Shown one piece after another: positions 2 to 6,964 of a DNA stretch of 6,964 nucleotides. This DNA is from a virus (taxonomy: Duplodnaviria > Heunggongvirae > Uroviricota > Caudoviricetes): positions 1 to 6,964 of the IMG/VR virus record IMGVR_UViG_2693429728_000005. The stretch is one strand, 5' to 3'. A model generated the notes under the pieces. That model was not told where the DNA came from and did not search any database. It saw nothing but the letters and a program-made list of their open reading frames with translations. The translations under genes and the position numbers were made by a program. The stretch's first letter is position 1. Each line of letters opens with the position of its first letter.

Positions 2-406
2 GTGGTGAAGGATGCTTTTTATATTCATCAGCATAAAGGGACCACCAGTGCCGTGCGGCGGGTGGTGGAGCCGTTCGGATTCCTGATCCGCATTATTGAG
101 TGGTGGCAGACCGGAGAAACACCGGGCACGTTTCGCCTGGATATCGGCGTGCAGGACCAGGGCATCACTGAAGATACCTATCTGGAACTTGAGCGACTGA
201 TAAGCGATGCCAAACCATGTAGCCGCCACATGATCGGCATGTCCATCAATCTGCAGACCAGCGGCCCGCATTGGGTGGGAGCCGCCAGCTATCTTGGCGA
301 AGAAATCACGATCTATCCGTATATCAACGAAACGATTATTTCCGGTGGCACCGCGCATGAAGGCGGGGCGGTCCATGTTATTGACACAATGAGAGTGAAT
401 CCATGA
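2..406 (+). CDS. Baseplate assembly protein, P2 gpI-like, C-terminal part (5' end lies upstream of window)
   Basis: ORF runs from window edge; stop TGA overlaps ATG of the downstream fibre gene (ATGA at 403..406), typical translational coupling; position immediately upstream of H-like fibre gene matches P2 order I-H-G-FI-FII. Identity by synteny, not by search. Confidence 0.55.
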   Translation: MVKDAFYIHQHKGTTSAVRRVVEPFGFLIRIIEWWQTGETPGTFRLDIGVQDQGITEDTYLELERLISDAKPCSRHMIGMSINLQTSGPHWVGAASYLGEEITIYPYINETIISGGTAHEGGAVHVIDTMRVNP

Positions 407-1929
407 GCACAAAATTTTATACCCTGCTGACGGATATTGGCGCGGCGAAACTTGCCAGCGCCGCCGCGCTCGGTGTGCCGCTAAAAATTACCCATATGGC
501 GGTGGGCGATGGCGGTGGAGTATTGCCAACGCCGGACGCAAAACAGACGGCACTGGTAAATGAGAAACGCCGGGCTGCGCTGAATATGCTTTATATCGAC
601 CCGCAGAACAGCAGCCAGATTATTGCCGAACAGGTGATCCCTGAAAACGAGGGCGGTTGGTGGATACGTGAAGTGGGTCTGTTTGATGAGTCCGGGGCAT
701 TGATTGCCGTGGGCAACTGCCCGGAAAGCTATAAGCCGCAACTGGCTGAAGGTAGCGGGCGCACTCAGACCGTGCGCATGGTGCTGATTACCAGCAGCAC
801 GGACAATATCACCCTGAAAATCGACCCTGCTGTAGTGCTGGCAACCCGCAAGTATGTGGATGACAAGGCACTGGAGCTGAAGGTGTACGCGGATGATCAG
901 ATGGCAAAACATCTTGCCGCACCGGACCCGCATTCACAGTACGCGCCAAAAGCCAGCCCGACATTTACCGGAACCCCCAAAGCGCCAACGCCAGCGGCGG
1001 GGAATAATACCACGCAGGTTGCGACCACTGCGTTTGTACAGGCGGCACTGACGGCCCTTATTAATGGTGCGCCAGCCACGCTGGACACGCTGAAAGAAAT
1101 AGCCGCAGCCATTAACAATGATCCGAATTTCAGTACCACCATTAACAATGCGCTGGCACTAAAAGCACCGTTGTCGAGTCCGGCACTCACCGGAACGCCA
1201 ACAGCCCCCACGGCGGCGCAGTCGGTCAACAATACACAGATTGCCACTACGGCTTTTGTGAAATCGGCGATTGCAGGAATGGTGGGTTCTGCACCTGCTG
1301 CACTGGATACACTGAACGAACTGGCGGCGGCACTGGGGAATGATCCGAACTTTGCCACGACAATGCTTAATGCGCTGGCAGGTAAACAACCGCTGGACAA
1401 TACGCTTACCAATTTGAGTGGAAAGGATGTAGCTGGTCTTCTCACATACCTTGGTTTGGGAGAAGGCTCTGCATTGCCTGTTGGTGTGCCTGTTCCGTGG
1501 CCTTCAGCCACTCCGCCAACAGGCTGGCTGAAATGCAATGGTGCGGCTTTTTCTGCTGAAGAATACCCGGAACTGGCAAAGGCTTACCCGACAAATAAAT
1601 TGCCTGATTTACGCGGTGAATTTATTCGCGGCTGGGATGACGGGCGCGGGGTTGATGTTGGGCGTGCAATCTTATCATCGCAGGGCGATGCCATCAGAAA
1701 TATAATTGGCAAGTTTGGTAATACTCAATTGTACCCAAGTATCTATTGTGATGGTGCATTTGGCGTCACTGTTGAGAATGTGTCACAAACTTTAGGATTA
1801 ACTCTTGCGCCTTCAGGGGCAGGTAATGGGACTGTAAACTTTAGCTTTGATGCATCTAAAATCGTTCCTGTTGCCACTGAAAACCGGCCGCGCAACGTCG
1901 CATTTAACTTCATTGTGAGGGCTGCATAA
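403..1929 (+). CDS. Tail fibre protein (P2 gpH / Mu S-like): constant part Sc (aa 1-354) fused to variable tip Sv(A) (aa 355-508)
   Basis: 508-aa ORF; N-terminus MSTKFYTLLTDIGAAKLA...MAVGDGGG resembles P2 H N-terminus; internal NNTQxATTAFV...LDTLxExAAAxxNDPNF repeats typical of fibre shafts; C-terminus carries a tail-collar-like motif (PWPSATPPTGWLKCNGAAFSAEEYPELAKAYP...LPDLRGEFIRGWDDGRG); crossover site lies in-frame at codons 346-354 (LTYLGLGE). Confidence 0.9.
   Translation: MSTKFYTLLTDIGAAKLASAAALGVPLKITHMAVGDGGGVLPTPDAKQTALVNEKRRAALNMLYIDPQNSSQIIAEQVIPENEGGWWIREVGLFDESGALIAVGNCPESYKPQLAEGSGRTQTVRMVLITSSTDNITLKIDPAVVLATRKYVDDKALELKVYADDQMAKHLAAPDPHSQYAPKASPTFTGTPKAPTPAAGNNTTQVATTAFVQAALTALINGAPATLDTLKEIAAAINNDPNFSTTINNALALKAPLSSPALTGTPTAPTAAQSVNNTQIATTAFVKSAIAGMVGSAPAALDTLNELAAALGNDPNFATTMLNALAGKQPLDNTLTNLSGKDVAGLLTYLGLGEGSALPVGVPVPWPSATPPTGWLKCNGAAFSAEEYPELAKAYPTNKLPDLRGEFIRGWDDGRGVDVGRAILSSQGDAIRNIIGKFGNTQLYPSIYCDGAFGVTVENVSQTLGLTLAPSGAGNGTVNFSFDASKIVPVATENRPRNVAFNFIVRAA
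1439..1464. other. Invertase crossover site cix1 (26 bp, TTCTCACATACC-TT-GGTTTGGGAGAA), inside fibre gene at Sc/Sv boundary
   Basis: Near-palindromic 12-2-12 site resembling hix/gix/cix sites (half-site like TTCTCCCAAACC); sequence identity between copies begins within it; core dinucleotide TT on top strand. Confidence 0.75.
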
Positions 1930-2271
1930 TGGCACAGGCAAAATTAAACAGCGAACTGATTGCCACGGTAGCGGGTGATGTGACCGTGTTTAACTACGAC
2001 AGCAAGACGCGGGAATATCTTTCCACATCAACTGAATATCTTGCTGTTGGCGTCGGTATCCCGGCATGTTCTTGTTTAGATGCACCAGGTATACATAAAG
2101 CTGGTTATGCAATCTGCCGTTCAGCAGATTTAAACTCATGGGAGTATGTGCCAGACCATCGCGGTGAAATCATCTATAACACCGAAACGGGAGACGCCAA
2201 AGAAATCACAACTCCGGGTGATTACCCTGAAAATACAACCACTATCGCCCCGTTAACGCCATTCGATAAAT
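1451..2271 (+). repeat. Direct repeat copy 1 (821 bp): Sv(A) tip plus first 114 codons of tfa(A); identical to 2981..3801
   Basis: Base-for-base identity read from sequence and identical ORF translations; divergence at 1450 vs 2980 and at 2272 vs 3802. Confidence 0.9.
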
Positions 2272-2273
2272 AA
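1929..2273 (+). pseudogene. Truncated tail-fibre assembly gene (first 114 codons of tfa(A), then immediate TAA created by the rearrangement junction)
   Basis: 114-aa ORF identical to residues 1-114 of the 200-aa ORF at 3459..4061; lacks the C-terminal Tfa region (LNAVLDYIDAV...); sequence after codon 114 switches to the reverse complement of the invertase-downstream region. Confidence 0.8.
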
Positions 2274-2346
2274 GCGCAGTTGTACCGTTATTCACACAAA
2301 ATGACGGTATTTGTCTGCTTGCAGGGATAATCAAAATAATGCTGAT

Positions 2347-2913
2347 TCAGGGAGATTCATTGCTCTTATTTGCCGGAAATTTTCTATAAATAGTAGAAAC
2401 GCCTACATCAAAAATCAGTGCAATACGCTGTCTTGATTCTCCGGCCTCAAGTAAACGCCCAATCTGTGCCCACTGTTCGGTGGTCAACTTAGGACGGCGT
2501 CCACCTACTCTGCCTTTGGCACGAGCTGCAGCCAGCCCTGCCCTGGTACGTTCAACTATCAGTTCGCGTTCCATTTCAGCCAGGGCACCCATAACATGAA
2601 AAAAGAAACGGCCCATTGGGGTACTGGTATCAATACTGTCAGTCAGGCTTCGGAAATTCACGCCACGCTGGCGCAACTCTTCTATCAGCGTAACAAGATG
2701 CCGCATACTGCGCCCCAGTCTGTCCAGCTTCCAGACAACCAGAGTGTCTCCTGCCGATAGTGTCCTGAGCAGTTTTTTAAGCCCCGGTCTGTCGGACTTA
2801 GTGCCACTGATTTTATCCTCAAAAATCCGCTCACATCCCGCGCAGTTCAGTGCATTACGTTGCAAATCGGTGTTCTGGTCATTTGTTGACACGCGTACAT
2901 AGCCAATAAGCAT
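2347..2913 (-). CDS. Serine DNA invertase, Gin/Pin/Cin/Hin family, copy 1 (189 aa from the MLIGYVRVS start; ORF as drawn extends to 2958)
   Basis: N-terminus MLIGYVRVSTNDQNTDLQRNAL with catalytic-serine motif, VVWKLDRLGRS, FFFHVMGALAEMERELIVERT, and C-terminal HTH region GVSTIYRKF are hallmarks of small serine invertases, very close to Mu Gin as remembered; preferred start has an AGGGGA Shine-Dalgarno 7 nt upstream. Confidence 0.9.
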   Translation of the reverse strand: MLIGYVRVSTNDQNTDLQRNALNCAGCERIFEDKISGTKSDRPGLKKLLRTLSAGDTLVVWKLDRLGRSMRHLVTLIEELRQRGVNFRSLTDSIDTSTPMGRFFFHVMGALAEMERELIVERTRAGLAAARAKGRVGGRRPKLTTEQWAQIGRLLEAGESRQRIALIFDVGVSTIYRKFPANKSNESP

Positions 2914-2940
2914 GATCAATCCCCTGAATAAAAACCGGGG

Positions 2941-3459
2941 ATGATGCCAGTTAGCCATTATCTCTGCATTTTCATAAACGTTGGTTTGGGAGAAGGCTCT
3001 GCATTGCCTGTTGGTGTGCCTGTTCCGTGGCCTTCAGCCACTCCGCCAACAGGCTGGCTGAAATGCAATGGTGCGGCTTTTTCTGCTGAAGAATACCCGG
3101 AACTGGCAAAGGCTTACCCGACAAATAAATTGCCTGATTTACGCGGTGAATTTATTCGCGGCTGGGATGACGGGCGCGGGGTTGATGTTGGGCGTGCAAT
3201 CTTATCATCGCAGGGCGATGCCATCAGAAATATAATTGGCAAGTTTGGTAATACTCAATTGTACCCAAGTATCTATTGTGATGGTGCATTTGGCGTCACT
3301 GTTGAGAATGTGTCACAAACTTTAGGATTAACTCTTGCGCCTTCAGGGGCAGGTAATGGGACTGTAAACTTTAGCTTTGATGCATCTAAAATCGTTCCTG
3401 TTGCCACTGAAAACCGGCCGCGCAACGTCGCATTTAACTTCATTGTGAGGGCTGCATAA
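2941..3459 (+). CDS. Second copy of Sv(A) fibre-tip cassette, promoterless and not fused to Sc in this arrangement (cassette proper 2995..3459; the first 18 codons of the ORF are read-through across cix2 into invertase-upstream DNA)
   Basis: Residues after GLGE are identical to aa 355-508 of the fibre gene; N-terminal [14 protein letters not shown] is the antisense of the invertase leader and also appears at the start of the Sv(B) ORF, so it is not a genuine N-terminus. Confidence 0.6.
   Translation: MMPVSHYLCIFINVGLGEGSALPVGVPVPWPSATPPTGWLKCNGAAFSAEEYPELAKAYPTNKLPDLRGEFIRGWDDGRGVDVGRAILSSQGDAIRNIIGKFGNTQLYPSIYCDGAFGVTVENVSQTLGLTLAPSGAGNGTVNFSFDASKIVPVATENRPRNVAFNFIVRAA
2969..2994. other. 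Invertase crossover site cix2 (TTTTCATAAACG-TT-GGTTTGGGAGAA), same orientation as cix1
   Basis: Exact reverse complement of cix3; the left half-site is continuous with invertase-upstream sequence, the right half with Sv(A). Confidence 0.75.
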
Positions 3460-3801
3460 TGGCACAGGCAAAATTAAACAGCGAACTGATTGCCACGGTA
3501 GCGGGTGATGTGACCGTGTTTAACTACGACAGCAAGACGCGGGAATATCTTTCCACATCAACTGAATATCTTGCTGTTGGCGTCGGTATCCCGGCATGTT
3601 CTTGTTTAGATGCACCAGGTATACATAAAGCTGGTTATGCAATCTGCCGTTCAGCAGATTTAAACTCATGGGAGTATGTGCCAGACCATCGCGGTGAAAT
3701 CATCTATAACACCGAAACGGGAGACGCCAAAGAAATCACAACTCCGGGTGATTACCCTGAAAATACAACCACTATCGCCCCGTTAACGCCATTCGATAAA
3801 T
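2981..3801 (+). repeat. Direct repeat copy 2 (821 bp), identical to 1451..2271
   Basis: See copy 1. Confidence 0.9.
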
Positions 3802-4061
3802 GGGATGGTGAGAAATGGGTGACCGATACTGAGGCACAGCATTGCGCCGCAGTAGACGCGGCAGAAGCACAGCGTCAGTCACTGATTGATACTGCAATGG
3901 CTTCCATCAGTCTGATTCAACTGAAATTGCAGGCCGGGCGGAAGCTGACGCAGGCAGAAACCACCCGACTTAACGCTGTGCTGGATTACATTGACGCGGT
4001 GACGGCAACAGATACCAGCACCGCGCCGGATGTCATCTGGCCTGAACTGCCGGAGGCGTAG
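3459..4061 (+). CDS. Tail-fibre assembly protein tfa(A) (P2 gpG / Mu U-like), full length, 200 aa
   Basis: Start ATG overlaps the Sv(A) stop (TAATG); C-terminal LNAVLDYIDAVTATDTSTAPDVIWPELP resembles conserved Tfa C-termini; position directly after the fibre tip. Confidence 0.85.
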   Translation: MAQAKLNSELIATVAGDVTVFNYDSKTREYLSTSTEYLAVGVGIPACSCLDAPGIHKAGYAICRSADLNSWEYVPDHRGEIIYNTETGDAKEITTPGDYPENTTTIAPLTPFDKWDGEKWVTDTEAQHCAAVDAAEAQRQSLIDTAMASISLIQLKLQAGRKLTQAETTRLNAVLDYIDAVTATDTSTAPDVIWPELPEA

Positions 4062-4473
4062 GCCATTCAATATCTGGCGCACCGGAAGTATCGACCAGTT
4101 CCAGTGCGTCCAGGTAATCCAGCCACAAATTATATTGCGCCAGTTCGTCACCTTTCAGACGACCAATAGCCGCTTTACCAGGCCATTGTTTACTGTTCAT
4201 ATAATCGTTGGCCTGATTAATCAATTGCTGCTTCTCCAGTTCGGCTGCAGCAATTTGTTCCTCATGTGTTGGTGGTGGAATTTCGGACCATGCAGGAAAA
4301 CCATTTTCTCCAGCGATACGGATTTTTCCTTTCGGCGGTAATCCGGAAAACTCAATATACACTTGCTCATCAACTTCAACAGCATCATCTGGCCATGAGT
4401 CAGCTTGAGTGTAATCCTCTTTCATCTCCAGCGGATAGAAAGAGTTTGTAGTCGCGGAATATATGTAATTCAT
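4033..4473 (-). CDS. Alternative tail-fibre assembly protein tfa(B) (Mu U'-like), 146 aa
   Basis: Convergent with tfa(A), with 3' ends overlapping by 29 bp (4033..4061); C-terminal NLWLDYLDALELVDTSGAPDIEWPTPP parallels the tfa(A) C-terminus; GGAG Shine-Dalgarno upstream on minus strand. Confidence 0.8.
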   Translation of the reverse strand: MNYIYSATTNSFYPLEMKEDYTQADSWPDDAVEVDEQVYIEFSGLPPKGKIRIAGENGFPAWSEIPPPTHEEQIAAAELEKQQLINQANDYMNSKQWPGKAAIGRLKGDELAQYNLWLDYLDALELVDTSGAPDIEWPTPPAVQAR

Positions 4474-4494: not shown

Positions 4495-4887
4495 TTAACA
4501 GCCTAACGCTAAAAATGAAGCGCCGAGGCCAGGAGTACTGGCTCTGGATATAAATTTAACCGGGTCGGGACTAAAACCTGCACAGGCAATATAACCAACA
4601 GCCCCGCTATCTGGTGTGTAGTCTTGTGAGACCAAAACACGCAGACATCTGTTTGGAAATGCAATCGGGAAATGGGTTACTACATCCTGTGCAATGCCTG
4701 GTGCGCCGATTGAGCCCCACTGAAGAATAAAACCTGATGGTAATTTTTGATATCCAGTACCTGAAACAGAAAGCGTGAAGCTACCCATATCAGGTATCTG
4801 ATTCGCCCCTGTCCCTACATTCCTTTTAGCCGCTTCTCCCAAACCAACGTTTATGAAAATGCAGAGATAATGGCTAACTGGCATCAT
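4495..4887 (-). CDS. Alternative fibre-tip cassette Sv(B), silent in this orientation (cassette proper 4495..4833, 112 aa after GLGE; the ORF as drawn reads through cix3)
   Basis: Minus-strand reading through cix3 gives ...NVGLGE then [19 protein letters not shown]...ALGC, in the same frame as Sc across the crossover site; inversion would produce a 466-aa Sc+Sv(B) fibre; sits directly upstream (minus sense) of tfa(B). Confidence 0.75.
4834..4859. other. Invertase crossover site cix3 (TTCTCCCAAACC-AA-CGTTTATGAAAA), inverted relative to cix1 and cix2
   Basis: 12-2-12 site; close to the hix half-site as remembered (TTATCAAAAACC); core AA on top strand versus TT at cix1/cix2. Confidence 0.8.
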
Positions 4888-4914
4888 CCCCGGTTTTTAT
4901 TCAGGGGATTGATC

Positions 4915-5481
4915 ATGCTTATTGGCTATGTACGCGTGTCAACAAATGACCAGAACACCGATTTGCAACGTAATGCACTGAACTGCGCGGGATGTGAGCG
5001 GATTTTTGAGGATAAAATCAGTGGCACTAAGTCCGACAGACCGGGGCTTAAAAAACTGCTCAGGACACTATCGGCAGGAGACACTCTGGTTGTCTGGAAG
5101 CTGGACAGACTGGGGCGCAGTATGCGGCATCTTGTTACGCTGATAGAAGAGTTGCGCCAGCGTGGCGTGAATTTCCGAAGCCTGACTGACAGTATTGATA
5201 CCAGTACCCCAATGGGCCGTTTCTTTTTTCATGTTATGGGTGCCCTGGCTGAAATGGAACGCGAACTGATAGTTGAACGTACCAGGGCAGGGCTGGCTGC
5301 AGCTCGTGCCAAAGGCAGAGTAGGTGGACGCCGTCCTAAGTTGACCACCGAACAGTGGGCACAGATTGGGCGTTTACTTGAGGCCGGAGAATCAAGACAG
5401 CGTATTGCACTGATTTTTGATGTAGGCGTTTCTACTATTTATAGAAAATTTCCGGCAAATAAGAGCAATGAATCTCCCTGA
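4915..5481 (+). CDS. Serine DNA invertase, Gin/Pin/Cin/Hin family, copy 2 (ORF as drawn starts at 4870)
   Basis: Identical protein to copy 1; AGGGGA Shine-Dalgarno before ATG 4915; a GATAAT -10-like hexamer at 4866..4871 abuts cix3, consistent with a promoter overlapping the crossover site. Confidence 0.9.
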   Translation: MLIGYVRVSTNDQNTDLQRNALNCAGCERIFEDKISGTKSDRPGLKKLLRTLSAGDTLVVWKLDRLGRSMRHLVTLIEELRQRGVNFRSLTDSIDTSTPMGRFFFHVMGALAEMERELIVERTRAGLAAARAKGRVGGRRPKLTTEQWAQIGRLLEAGESRQRIALIFDVGVSTIYRKFPANKSNESP

Positions 5482-5529
5482 ATCAGCATTATTTTGATTA
5501 TCCCTGCAAGCAGACAAATACCGTCATTT

Positions 5530-5547
5530 TGTGTGAATAACGGTACA
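5530..5547 (+). promoter_or_regulatory. TGT-N12-ACA dyad, candidate P2-type late-promoter activator (Ogr/Delta family) site upstream of the sheath gene
   Basis: TGTgtgaataacggtACA lies about 75-95 nt upstream of the sheath ATG (5624), appropriate for an element centred near -55; P2 late promoters carry this dyad. The same dyad is mirrored at 2281..2298 inside the left repeat arm. Confidence 0.4.
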
Positions 5548-5623
5548 ACTGCGCTTAGCTGTTTGTCAGGCACAATCACTTCAACATAGGGCGAAGCCTA
5601 ATCCAATCAGGAGGTTCGCCACT

Positions 5624-6796
5624 ATGGCTCAGGATTACCACCACGGGGTGCGCGTTGTTGAAGTCAACGAAGGCACCCGATCCATTACCACGGTGAGCAC
5701 CGCCATCGTGGGTATGATCTGCACGGGCGATGATGCCGATGCAAAAATGTTTCCTCTTAATAAACCCGTGCTGATCACTGATGTGCTGACTGCCAGCGGT
5801 AAAGCGGGTGAGTCCGGTACTCTGGCCCGTTCGCTGGATGCCATCGCTGACCAGGCAAAACCCGTGACCGTTGTTGTGCGTGTGCCGCAGGGTGAAACGG
5901 AAGACGAAACCACGACCAATATCATCGGCGCTGTGACTGCTGAAGGTAAAAAAACAGGCATGAAAGCCCTGCTATCTGCCCAGTCACAGCTCGGCGTTAA
6001 ACCGCGCATTCTCGGCGTGCCAGGTCACGATAACAAAGCCGTTGCGACTGAGTTGCTGAGCGTGGCGCAAAGCCTGCGTGGGTTTGCTTACCTGTCAGCG
6101 TATGGCTGCAAGACGGTACAGGAGGCGATCACTTACCGTGAAAACTTCAGCCAGCGCGAAGGAATGCTGATCTGGCCCGACTTTACTGGCTGGGATACGG
6201 TGTTGAATGCCGAAGCAACGGCATATGCCACCGCCCGTGCGCTTGGTCTGCGCGCCAAAATTGATGAGCAGACCGGGTGGCACAAAAGCCTGTCCAACGT
6301 GGGCGTGAACGGTGTCACCGGAATTTCTGCAGATGTGTTCTGGGATCTGCAGGACCCGGCAACCGATGCGGGACTGCTTAACCAGAACGACGTCACCACG
6401 CTTATCCGCAAAGACGGTTTCCGCTTCTGGGGTTCCCGCTGCCTGAGTGATGACCCGCTCTTTGCCTTCGAAAACTACACCCGCACGGCGCAGGTACTGA
6501 TGGACACGATGGCAGAAGCGCATATGTGGGCGGTGGACAAACCGCTGAACCCGTCGCTGGCCCGCGACATTATCGAAGGTATCCGCGCCAAAATGCGCAG
6601 CCTGGTCAGTCAGGGGTATCTCATTGGTGGTGATTGCTGGCTGGACGAGTCGGTGAACGACAAAGACACGCTGAAAGCCGGAAAACTCACCATCGACTAT
6701 GACTACACGCCAGTGCCGCCACTTGAAAATCTGATGCTGCGTCAGCGCATCACCGATCAGTACCTGGTGAATTTTGCCAGCCAGGTCAGCGCGTAA
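5624..6796 (+). CDS. Tail sheath protein (P2 gpFI-like), 390 aa
   Basis: Strong AGGAGG Shine-Dalgarno 8 nt upstream; N-terminus [31 protein letters not shown] matches the contractile-tail sheath N-terminus of P2-like phages as remembered; followed by tail tube gene. Confidence 0.9.
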
Positions 6797-6805
6797 GGGG
6801 ACAAC

Positions 6806-6964
6806 ATGGCTTTACCACGCAAATTAAAACATCTGAACCTGTTTAACGACGGGAACAACTGGCAGGGGATCGTAGAGTCTTTGACGCTGCCGAAATTCAC
6901 CCGCAAATATGAGAAGTATCGCGGCGGCGGAATGCCGGGTGCAGTGGATGTGGATCTGGGGCTT
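6806..6964 (+). CDS. Tail tube protein (P2 gpFII-like), N-terminal 53 codons; continues beyond window
   Basis: ATG at 6806 preceded by AAGGGGA; translation MALPRKLKHLNLFNDGNNWQGIVESLTLPKFTRKYEKYRGGGMPGAVDVDLGL read manually; resembles FII N-terminus and follows the sheath gene as in P2. Confidence 0.75.
   Translation, partial: MALPRKLKHLNLFNDGNNWQGIVESLTLPKFTRKYEKYRGGGMPGAVDVDLGL

Follow-up and report, generated by a model that had tools for sequence, protein, structure and literature searches.

A predicted late-promoter activator site upstream of the tail sheath gene in a P2-family prophage, and its mirrored copy in a probable tandem duplication flipped at the invertible fibre segment

Introduction

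The TGT-N12-ACA dyad at positions 5530..5547 of a 6964-base stretch of phage DNA (hereafter the window) is the predicted activator site of a sheath-operon late promoter, the orthologue of pF in phage P2 and of pJ in phage 186. A mirrored copy of the dyad lies in what appears to be an inverted duplication within the same window. This "inverted duplication" agrees at every base with a head-to-tail tandem duplication of 1530 bp in the flipped locus, followed by one inversion. Taken as a whole, the account in which the native dyad belongs to the late promoter of the sheath and tube genes, and the mirrored copy arose by tandem duplication followed by inversion, is very probably correct. The native element is unremarkable, being orthologous to a promoter already known, and the mirrored copy came about by accident in a rearrangement private to this sequence. 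The four late promoters of P2 have a common TGT-N12-ACA element and are Ogr-dependent (PMC3931495). In this study, we describe the native dyad and its conservation in relatives, the rearrangement that produced the mirrored copy, and the candidate activity of that copy.

Materials and methods

Two samples of relatives were used. The wider sample consisted of 80 IMG/VR loci with close relatives of the sheath gene, which gave 67 distinct upstream sequences. The named sample consisted of 13 Peduoviridae from about nine genera. The "-55" position of the dyad was taken from the GenBank annotations of P2 and 186 and from PMC3931495. Register positions such as +43.5 are counted in nucleotides from the dyad centre.

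The window was rebuilt in silico as follows. Briefly, one 1530-bp unit was dropped, and the fibre segment was inverted at the central dinucleotides of crossover sites L and R. A 1530-bp segment was then duplicated, and the DNA between L and the distal R was inverted. The duplicated segment began in tfa(A), at nt 832 when numbered from site L, and took in Sv(A), site R, and the invertase gene up to 10 bp past the dyad.

Results

The whole window is the tail region of a P2-family prophage, and the source phage is a member of this family (Peduoviridae, Wadgaonvirus-like). Among named phages, the nearest are Escherichia phage 500465-1 (Wadgaonvirus), Cartapus, and several Klebsiella phages. The E. 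coli SL124 prophage shows 99.9% identity and has 5434 bp where the window has 6964, that is, 1530 bp fewer. The genes of the window are as follows:

2..406: end of gpI
403..1929: tail fibre gene H, encoding a 508-aa fibre
1929..2273: truncated tail-fibre-assembly gene tfa(A), 114 aa against the 200 aa of the full copy
2347..2913, minus strand: invertase gene, inverted copy
3459..4061: full-length tfa(A), 200 aa, preceded by a fragment of Sv(A)
4033..4473, minus strand: tfa(B)' of the opposed alternative cassette
4495..4887, minus strand: Sv(B)' of the opposed alternative cassette
4915..5481, plus strand: invertase gene in its native place, Cin/Gin family, with Pfam Resolvase and HTH_7 matches
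5609..5614, plus strand: Shine-Dalgarno sequence AGGAGG, 9 nt before the sheath ATG, read off the sequence
5624..6796, plus strand: tail sheath gene (homologue of P2 FI and 186 J), assigned from the annotation and the Pfam Phage_sheath match in near-identical prophages

The sheath gene is the first gene of the operon served by the predicted promoter, and the tube gene starts after it, at the end of the window. The window invertase shares 79% amino-acid identity with Cin of phage P1.

The intergenic region between the invertase and sheath genes contains three elements of the predicted promoter:

5530..5547, no strand assigned: native TGT-N12-ACA dyad TGTGTGAATAACGGTACA, centre 5538.5, predicted Ogr/B/Delta-type activator site
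5582..5587, plus strand: predicted -10 hexamer CAACAT, starting at +43.5 from the dyad centre
5594..5597, plus strand: predicted transcription start region, +55.5 to +58.5 from the dyad centre, by homology to the annotated starts of P2 and 186

No -35-like element is present in the sheath promoter region. A sigma-70 consensus scan of the plus strand called no promoter before the sheath gene; an empty scan is expected for an activator-dependent promoter, and the scan is therefore uninformative here.

In the GenBank record of P2, an activator binding site is annotated for pF; the start follows the dyad centre by 56.5-58.5 nt, and FI, the sheath gene, lies 25 nt beyond the annotated start. The record of 186 has a B-protein site, the pJ start at a distance of 57.5 nt from the centre of the dyad, and J as the sheath gene in a P2-like layout. 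The distance from the dyad centre to the sheath ATG is 82.5 nt in P2, 81.5 nt in 186, and 85.5 nt in the window. Like P2 pF (FI-FII-E-T-U-D operon) and 186 pJ, the native copy stands directly upstream of the sheath gene. The dyad letters are of the same kind in P2 (TGTGCTGTCGATTAGCCA), 186 (TGTGCCAGACATCATCCA), and the window (TGTGTGAATAACGGTACA), except that the right half-site is a perfect ACA in the window and CCA in P2 and 186. Common to the three promoters are an nAnnnT -10 hexamer at +43.5 or +44.5 and the lack of a -35 element. The +43.5 register is also found at P2 pO (GAAACT), P2 pP (TAGCCT), and 186 pJ (GACAAT), whereas P2 pF is one base off the register, with GAAAAT at +44.5. Two further features distinguish the window from P2 and 186. 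The sequence between the dyad and the -10 hexamer is unrelated to theirs, and a Cin-like invertase gene, absent from both phages, ends 48 bp upstream of the window dyad; other phages have a terminator at this place.

The activator gene lies outside the window and was identified in near-identical prophages. The SL124 prophage and other contigs with an identical fibre gene encode a 72-aa Ogr_Delta zinc-finger protein, which is annotated as ogr/Delta-like, has a Pfam PF04606 match, and shows 54% identity to the B protein of 186. The cognate Ogr/B-type zinc-finger activator occupies the same place in the genome in P2, in 186, and in the near-identical prophages of the window. In the SL124 prophage, TGT-N12-ACA also occurs before the capsid operon O (12007) and the baseplate operon V (17915), and the pO and pF sites of this prophage are alike (TTTGTGTG..CGGTACAA). 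At the sequence level, the predicted native promoter has every feature of a P2-type late promoter, namely the dyad, the -10 register, a late operon behind it, and an encoded activator. From homology we infer activator binding, activator dependence, the start site, and the -10 assignment at this copy. During lytic growth, the small Ogr/B/Delta zinc-finger activator would bind the dyad, centred approximately 55-58 bp upstream of the start. The bound activator would help the host RNA polymerase to use a weak promoter with the -10 hexamer CAACAT and without a -35 element, and transcription would begin near 5594..5597 and proceed into the sheath gene.

The bare TGT-N12-ACA pattern is not enriched in the window. 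Five matches were found against 2.10 ± 1.37 in shuffled sequences, 11 of 200 shuffles reached five, and two of the five matches are duplicates that stem from the repeats. Because the bare-motif count is not significant, positional conservation was used as the test instead. By our own arithmetic, the chance expectation of a correctly placed dyad is approximately 0.004 per random upstream region. All 67 distinct IMG/VR upstream regions have the dyad 78.5-85.5 nt before the sheath ATG (an 8-nt range). Across these sequences, T-TGT and ACA are invariant and the interior of the dyad is variable. Every one of them has an nAnnAT hexamer that starts exactly at +43.5, despite a 7-nt variation in the spacing of dyad and ATG; the hexamers include CAACAT (the commonest), GAACAT, and TACCAT. 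Among the 13 named Peduoviridae, 12 have exactly one TGT-N12-[A/C]CA located 78.5-85.5 nt before the sheath ATG, with ENT90 as the sole exception. The position is kept in the named phages whatever the upstream neighbour is, be it an invertase gene, a tfa gene with a terminator, or another element. Further examples of an invertase gene followed by a sheath gene were sought in P88, vB_EcoM-689R6, and vB_YpM_23; their gene orders differ, and none was gained. The significance of the dyad lies in its position and conservation, both of which are direct observations, and not in the bare pattern. An earlier note on this DNA had proposed that the TGT-N12-ACA upstream of the sheath gene fits the activator element of P2-type late promoters. 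The proposal is supported by the shared position with the annotated P2 pF and 186 pJ sites and by its retention in the relatives of both samples.

The rearranged part of the window is delimited by two long repeats, three crossover sites, and a single novel junction:

1439..1464: crossover site L, TTCTCACATACC-TT-GGTTTGGGAGAA, matching 19/20 consensus positions
1439..2271, plus strand: direct repeat, copy 1, containing site L, Sv(A) as the variable fibre end, and tfa(A) up to its nt 342
2270..2271, no strand assigned: sole novel junction, where nt 342 of tfa(A) is joined, inverted, to the base that lies 10 bp beyond the dyad; the microhomology is 1 nt (T)
2271..2995, minus strand: left arm of the inverted repeat, an inverted copy of site R, the invertase gene, and 76 bp downstream including the dyad
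2969..2994: third crossover site, the reverse complement of R
2969..3801, plus strand: direct repeat, copy 2, which starts with the third crossover site and runs into the full-length tfa(A)
4833..5557, plus strand: right arm of the inverted repeat in its native place, containing site R, the invertase gene, and 76 bp of the intergenic region, of which the last 10 bp lie beyond the dyad
4834..4859: crossover site R, matching 18/20 consensus positions

The two arms of the inverted repeat (725 nt) are 100% complementary. The direct repeat (833 nt, period 1530) is identical in its two copies bar four differences in the outer half of the crossover site. Each of the three crossover sites is 26 bp long and has 12-2-12 symmetry. 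In the tandem form, the novel junction reads TTA|TTTATC. The TAA (2271..2273) that ends the truncated tfa ORF is made by the junction itself.

The ordinary 5434-bp locus, which is the window minus one 1530-bp unit, differs from SL124 at five positions; this ordinary form is the one present in all relatives. The sequence rebuilt from it is identical to the window at 6964/6964 positions. This exact rebuild means that the structure needs one illegitimate join and one ordinary invertase reaction. In the proposed course of events, a head-to-tail duplication of the 1530-bp segment would have arisen with the invertible fibre segment in the other orientation. The invertase would then have inverted the DNA between L and the distal R, turning one duplicated unit around. 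The earlier note had called the structure an inverted duplication. It is not a primary one and has to be replaced by a tandem duplication with one inversion, which rebuilds the window exactly. Its description of the endpoints was accurate. The duplication was said to end about 10 bp past the dyad, and the right arm ends at 5557. The left dyad was said to lie 8 bp from the truncated tfa stop, and it starts 8 nt beyond the end of the TAA at 2271..2273. The endpoint was placed inside the promoter, and it falls between the dyad and the -10 hexamer, at approximately -37 to -40 relative to the predicted start. The note described the left copy as devoid of the native -10/start region, and the left arm stops 10 bp past the dyad.

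The context is that of an invertible tail-fibre segment of the Gin/Cin/Hin/Pin type. As in Mu (G/Gin), P1 (C/Cin), and e14 (P/Pin), a Cin-family serine invertase is accompanied by 26-bp crossover sites with 12-2-12 symmetry, the sites lie at the Sc/Sv boundary of the fibre gene, and alternative Sv and tfa cassettes are present. The three sites of the window allow several isomers, as do those of the multi-site Min system of p15B. Unlike the sites of multiple-inversion systems, the third site of the window is a recent, 100% identical duplication and not an evolved part, and it is accompanied by a second invertase gene and part of a promoter, which is not so in the known systems.

The mirrored copy and its flank contain the following elements:

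2281..2298, no strand assigned: mirrored dyad TGTACCGTTATTCACACA (reverse complement of TGTGTGAATAACGGTACA) in the left arm, centre 2289.5
2241..2246, minus strand: fortuitous -10-like hexamer GATAGT, at +43.5 from the mirrored dyad centre

The dyad at 2281..2298 reads as the exact reverse complement of 5530..5547, as the earlier note had stated. That note also held that the copy points back toward the fibre gene. Such a direction says little for a dyad whose TGT and ACA half-sites are symmetric. In the P2 record, one TGT-N12-CCA dyad is annotated for the divergent promoters pP and pO, and each start lies 55.5 nt from its centre. This single site implies that the polarity of the dyad matters little and provides a precedent for the mirrored copy. 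The likeness to pP/pO has a limit: both flanks of the P2 site evolved as promoters, whereas the flank of the mirrored copy is accidental, being tfa(A) coding sequence read backwards. The hexamer GATAGT matches TATAAT at 4/6 positions, has A2 and T6, and is equal to or better than the natural hexamers with which it was compared. In this sequence, a hexamer as good as GATAGT occurs at 1.5-1.7% of single positions and in approximately 5% of three-position windows. At a chance of approximately 5%, the presence of GATAGT at +43.5 is an accident and not design. The predicted minus-strand start lies at approximately 2231..2234, and transcription from it would be antisense into the truncated tfa(A), Sv(A), and the fibre gene. 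The ORF list of the window contains no substantial minus-strand ORF downstream of the mirrored dyad. No late operon is served by the copy, and its arrangement occurs in no other record searched.

Searches of GTDB representative genomes, IMG/VR, and JGI metagenomes gave no match to the junction at 2270..2271, which was spanned by 0/5426 complete E. coli genomes. Exact look-ups of the duplication-specific ORF products (114 aa and 172 aa) gave no record. The ordinary arrangement is present in 24/24 contigs with the identical 508-aa fibre, and some of the identical-fibre contigs break inside the invertible segment. The duplication is private to one sequence and may not exist beyond one clone or assembly.

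Discussion

That the native dyad is something other than an activator site, whether a chance match, a terminator hairpin of the invertase gene, or a site of the inversion system, is hardly credible. The bare pattern count (5 against 2.1 expected) is compatible with chance, and a 6-bp inverted repeat, TACCGT..ACGGTA (5519..5545), overlaps the dyad. The position is nevertheless kept in 67/67 and 12/13 upstream regions, including those of P2, 186, and the Klebsiella phages, which have no invertase gene upstream. In 500465-1, the ACGGTA arm of the putative hairpin is changed to ACGACA while TGT and ACA are kept; no T-run follows the stem, and a terminator scan calls nothing at the site. TACCGT..ACGGTA was thus ruled out as a terminator, the stem not being conserved and the T-run being absent. 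As for a role in inversion, the enhancer of the Gin, Hin, and Cin systems lies inside the invertase gene and not downstream of it. For the novel junction, an alternative to illegitimate recombination or replication slippage is that the invertase itself made it by acting on two quasi crossover sites. The breakpoint in tfa(A) is the central dinucleotide of CCATTCGATAAA-TG-GGATGGTGAGAA, a quasi site that matches 11/20 consensus positions, ranks in the top 0.2% of 26-mers of the ordinary locus, and has a good right half-site. The promoter-side partner matches only 8/20, a score reached by about 9% of 26-mers, and the central dinucleotides differ (TA vs CA/TG). In Cin quasi-site events, moreover, the quasi site is usually paired with a genuine site, and wild-type invertases disfavour the intermolecular or deletion-type exchange that a duplication would need. 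With one side suggestive and the other poor, a junction made by the invertase was rejected as the main explanation, and we consider it improbable. An illegitimate join that produced a tandem duplication, followed by ordinary inversion, is the preferred course.

Two further alternatives concern the mirrored copy. The 1530-bp duplication may be an assembly or library artefact, in which a chimeric inverted join at 2270|2271 was threaded by the assembler through a population of mixed orientation; the native dyad would remain part of a late promoter. This is a substantial possibility, which we place somewhat below an even chance. The junction is in none of the other public records searched (GTDB, IMG/VR, JGI, and complete E. 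coli genomes), the 114-aa and 172-aa products are without record, and all 24 contigs with the identical fibre are ordinary, while the contig breaks in the segment show that assemblers struggle there. Both repeats are 100% identical (the direct repeat apart from the four positions in the crossover site), and the join has only 1 nt of microhomology. Uniqueness, perfect repeats, and minimal microhomology are equally expected of a chimeric read. On the other side, two ordinary biological events give the exact structure, and the second junction lies precisely at the central dinucleotide of a crossover site; this exact fit to duplication and site-specific inversion speaks for real DNA. To resolve perfect repeats of 725 and 833 nt in one contig also needs spanning reads, and tandem duplications with minimal microhomology often arise spontaneously. 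Even with a real duplication, the mirrored dyad may be inert, with the activator bound and no open complex formed for want of the native sequence from approximately -38 to +1; we give this reading an even chance. GATAGT departs from the family pattern nA(A/C)CAT over positions 3-5, with a G at position 5 where 67/67 relatives have A, and the replaced stretch (about -40 to -13) might matter. The match at +43.5, which a three-position window gives in approximately 5% of cases by chance, bears no sign of selection, and no ORF of note follows on the minus strand. Against inertness, mapped P2 promoters use poorer hexamers at +43.5 (GAAACT and TAGCCT), the dyad is known from P2 pP/pO to act in either direction, and the key -10 bases A2 and T6 are present in GATAGT.

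The mirrored copy is therefore best regarded as a candidate promoter that is not obviously inert. If its DNA exists, we infer roughly even odds that it fires in an activator-dependent manner. The copied dyad has lost its own -10 hexamer, and the accidental GATAGT at the correct distance may let the copy fire in late infection. The resulting antisense RNA would extend over the truncated tfa(A) and into the fibre gene, and its synthesis would run head on with transcription from the baseplate-operon promoter. From the tandem isomer, transcription started at this copy would first cross tfa(A)/Sv(A) in antisense and then enter the second copy of the invertase gene, in the direction of the sheath operon. 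Both the head-on and the tandem-isomer transcription are scenarios drawn from the positions of the elements.

A more far-reaching reading is that the duplication is a real heritable allele, a three-site inversion system with a working late promoter and a second invertase gene on invertible DNA. We hold this to be quite unlikely. If it were true, the isomer seen in the window would fire antisense across the fibre and tfa genes, and in the tandem isomer transcription would pass through the second copy of the invertase gene in the direction of the sheath operon. Orientation would then govern fibre expression or the frequency of inversion, and the element would be a newly born invertible promoter. 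For the mirrored copy to matter, the duplication would have to be real and the copy active.

The current picture of P2 late gene control is unchallenged by these results. The predicted late promoter of the sheath operon is fixed for a very common group of P2-like prophages of E. coli and Klebsiella. A strict rule for finding such promoters is to locate TGT-N12-ACA and then an nAnnAT hexamer that starts 43.5 nt from the dyad centre. A plain tandem duplication that was disguised by the resident invertase is also a caution for the interpretation of rearrangements, or possible misassemblies, at phase-variable segments.

A possible leftward promoter from the native dyad, antisense to the invertase gene, would have CAAAAT at +42.5 or AATAAT at +45.5 as its hexamer, and neither of these lies in the strict +43.5 register. 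These two leftward hexamers are not kept in Fels-2 and are kept in 500465-1.

Sequence flanking the native dyad

Immediately beyond the duplicated arm, on the side of the sheath gene, and on the opposite, invertase side of the native TGT-N12-ACA dyad, two elements were located.
5558..5569, GCTGTTTGTCAG, beginning one base past the end of the duplicated arm
5488..5496, minus strand, -10-like hexamers, mirrored on the plus strand at 2332..2340

The reverse complement of the first element, CTGACAAACAGC, is identical at 11 of 12 positions to CTGACAAATAGC, which lies directly downstream of the dyads in 186 pJ and P2 pF, the sheath-operon late promoters of these phages. In the window, the element is reversed in orientation and lies approximately 7 nt farther from the dyad. 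Its AGCTGT is partially retained in diverged relatives.

The invertase-side hexamers are CAAAAT at +42.5 and AATAAT at +45.5 from the dyad centre; neither is in the strict +43.5 register. A promoter scan also called TTGTCT-18-AATAAT in this region. Both hexamers are retained in phage 500465-1, as CAACAT and CATAAT, and those of the window are not retained in Fels-2. If used, a leftward start here would yield RNA antisense to the invertase gene and sense for the opposed fibre cassette Sv(B)'/tfa(B)'.

Crossover sites and products of the duplication

The window contains three 26-bp crossover sites of the invertible fibre segment and one quasi crossover site.
1439..1464, crossover site, L version, TTCTCACATACC-TT-GGTTTGGGAGAA
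2969..2994, crossover site, R version, first of two copies
4834..4859, crossover site, R version, second of two copies
3789..3814 (first copy from 2259), quasi crossover site, CCATTCGATAAA-TG-GGATGGTGAGAA, 11 of 20 consensus positions

Both invertase genes of the duplicated locus are intact. Since three crossover sites are present, several isomers are possible: as read from the sequence, the locus can invert between R' and R or between L and R, or it can recombine its direct repeats, a deletion that would restore the ordinary locus.

The match of the quasi site places it in the top 0.2% of 26-mers, and the breakpoint of the duplication in tfa(A) falls on its central dinucleotide. The boundary between the Pfam domains Caudo_TAP_N and Caudo_TAP of tfa, the fibre assembly gene, lies at roughly the same place. 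That the breakpoint coincides with a quasi crossover site and a domain boundary is probably fortuitous.

A 172-aa ORF (2941..3459) owes its existence solely to the duplication. The ORF starts at an ATG in the reversed leader of the invertase gene and continues in-frame across the crossover site and on into the Sv(A) fragment. Look-up of its product in a gene-position index (ENA, JGI, NCBI, Logan) returned no record.

Dyads and invertase cassettes in related phages

Two dyads were located in the E. coli SL124 prophage (coordinates of that prophage).
11949..11966, second perfect TGT-N12-ACA, overlapping the start codon of terminase gene P
17915..17932, dyad before V, at a distance of just 55.5 nt from the ATG annotated for V

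The predicted leftward start from the dyad common to O and P falls on the P ATG. Given this and the short V spacing, V and P would have either leaderless mRNAs or misannotated starts.

TGT-N12-[A/C]CA before the sheath gene was missing in only one of 13 phages, Erwinia phage ENT90, where TGTCCTGCCAGAGACCAG lies approximately 85 nt before the sheath ATG. This can be read as TGT-N11-CCA or TGT-N12-CAG, and the ENT90 activator may tolerate other spacing.

Peduovirus magyaro, a P2-like phage of E. coli O157:H43 T22, has a true P2-type pF region (dyad TGTGTCATCCCTTAGCCA), with the same downstream sequence as in P2. An invertase gene ends approximately 60 bp before this dyad; thus, more than one Peduoviridae lineage appears to have had an invertase cassette placed directly upstream of the pF dyad.

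Among L018 (GCA_036918795.1), L019, and L020, three contigs from relatives, one is a prophage with an identical fibre gene. It is decaying, as both its sheath/tube and its U/D genes carry internal deletions. The other two contigs break off within the invertible segment, a pattern typical of assemblies interrupted by a mixture of orientations.
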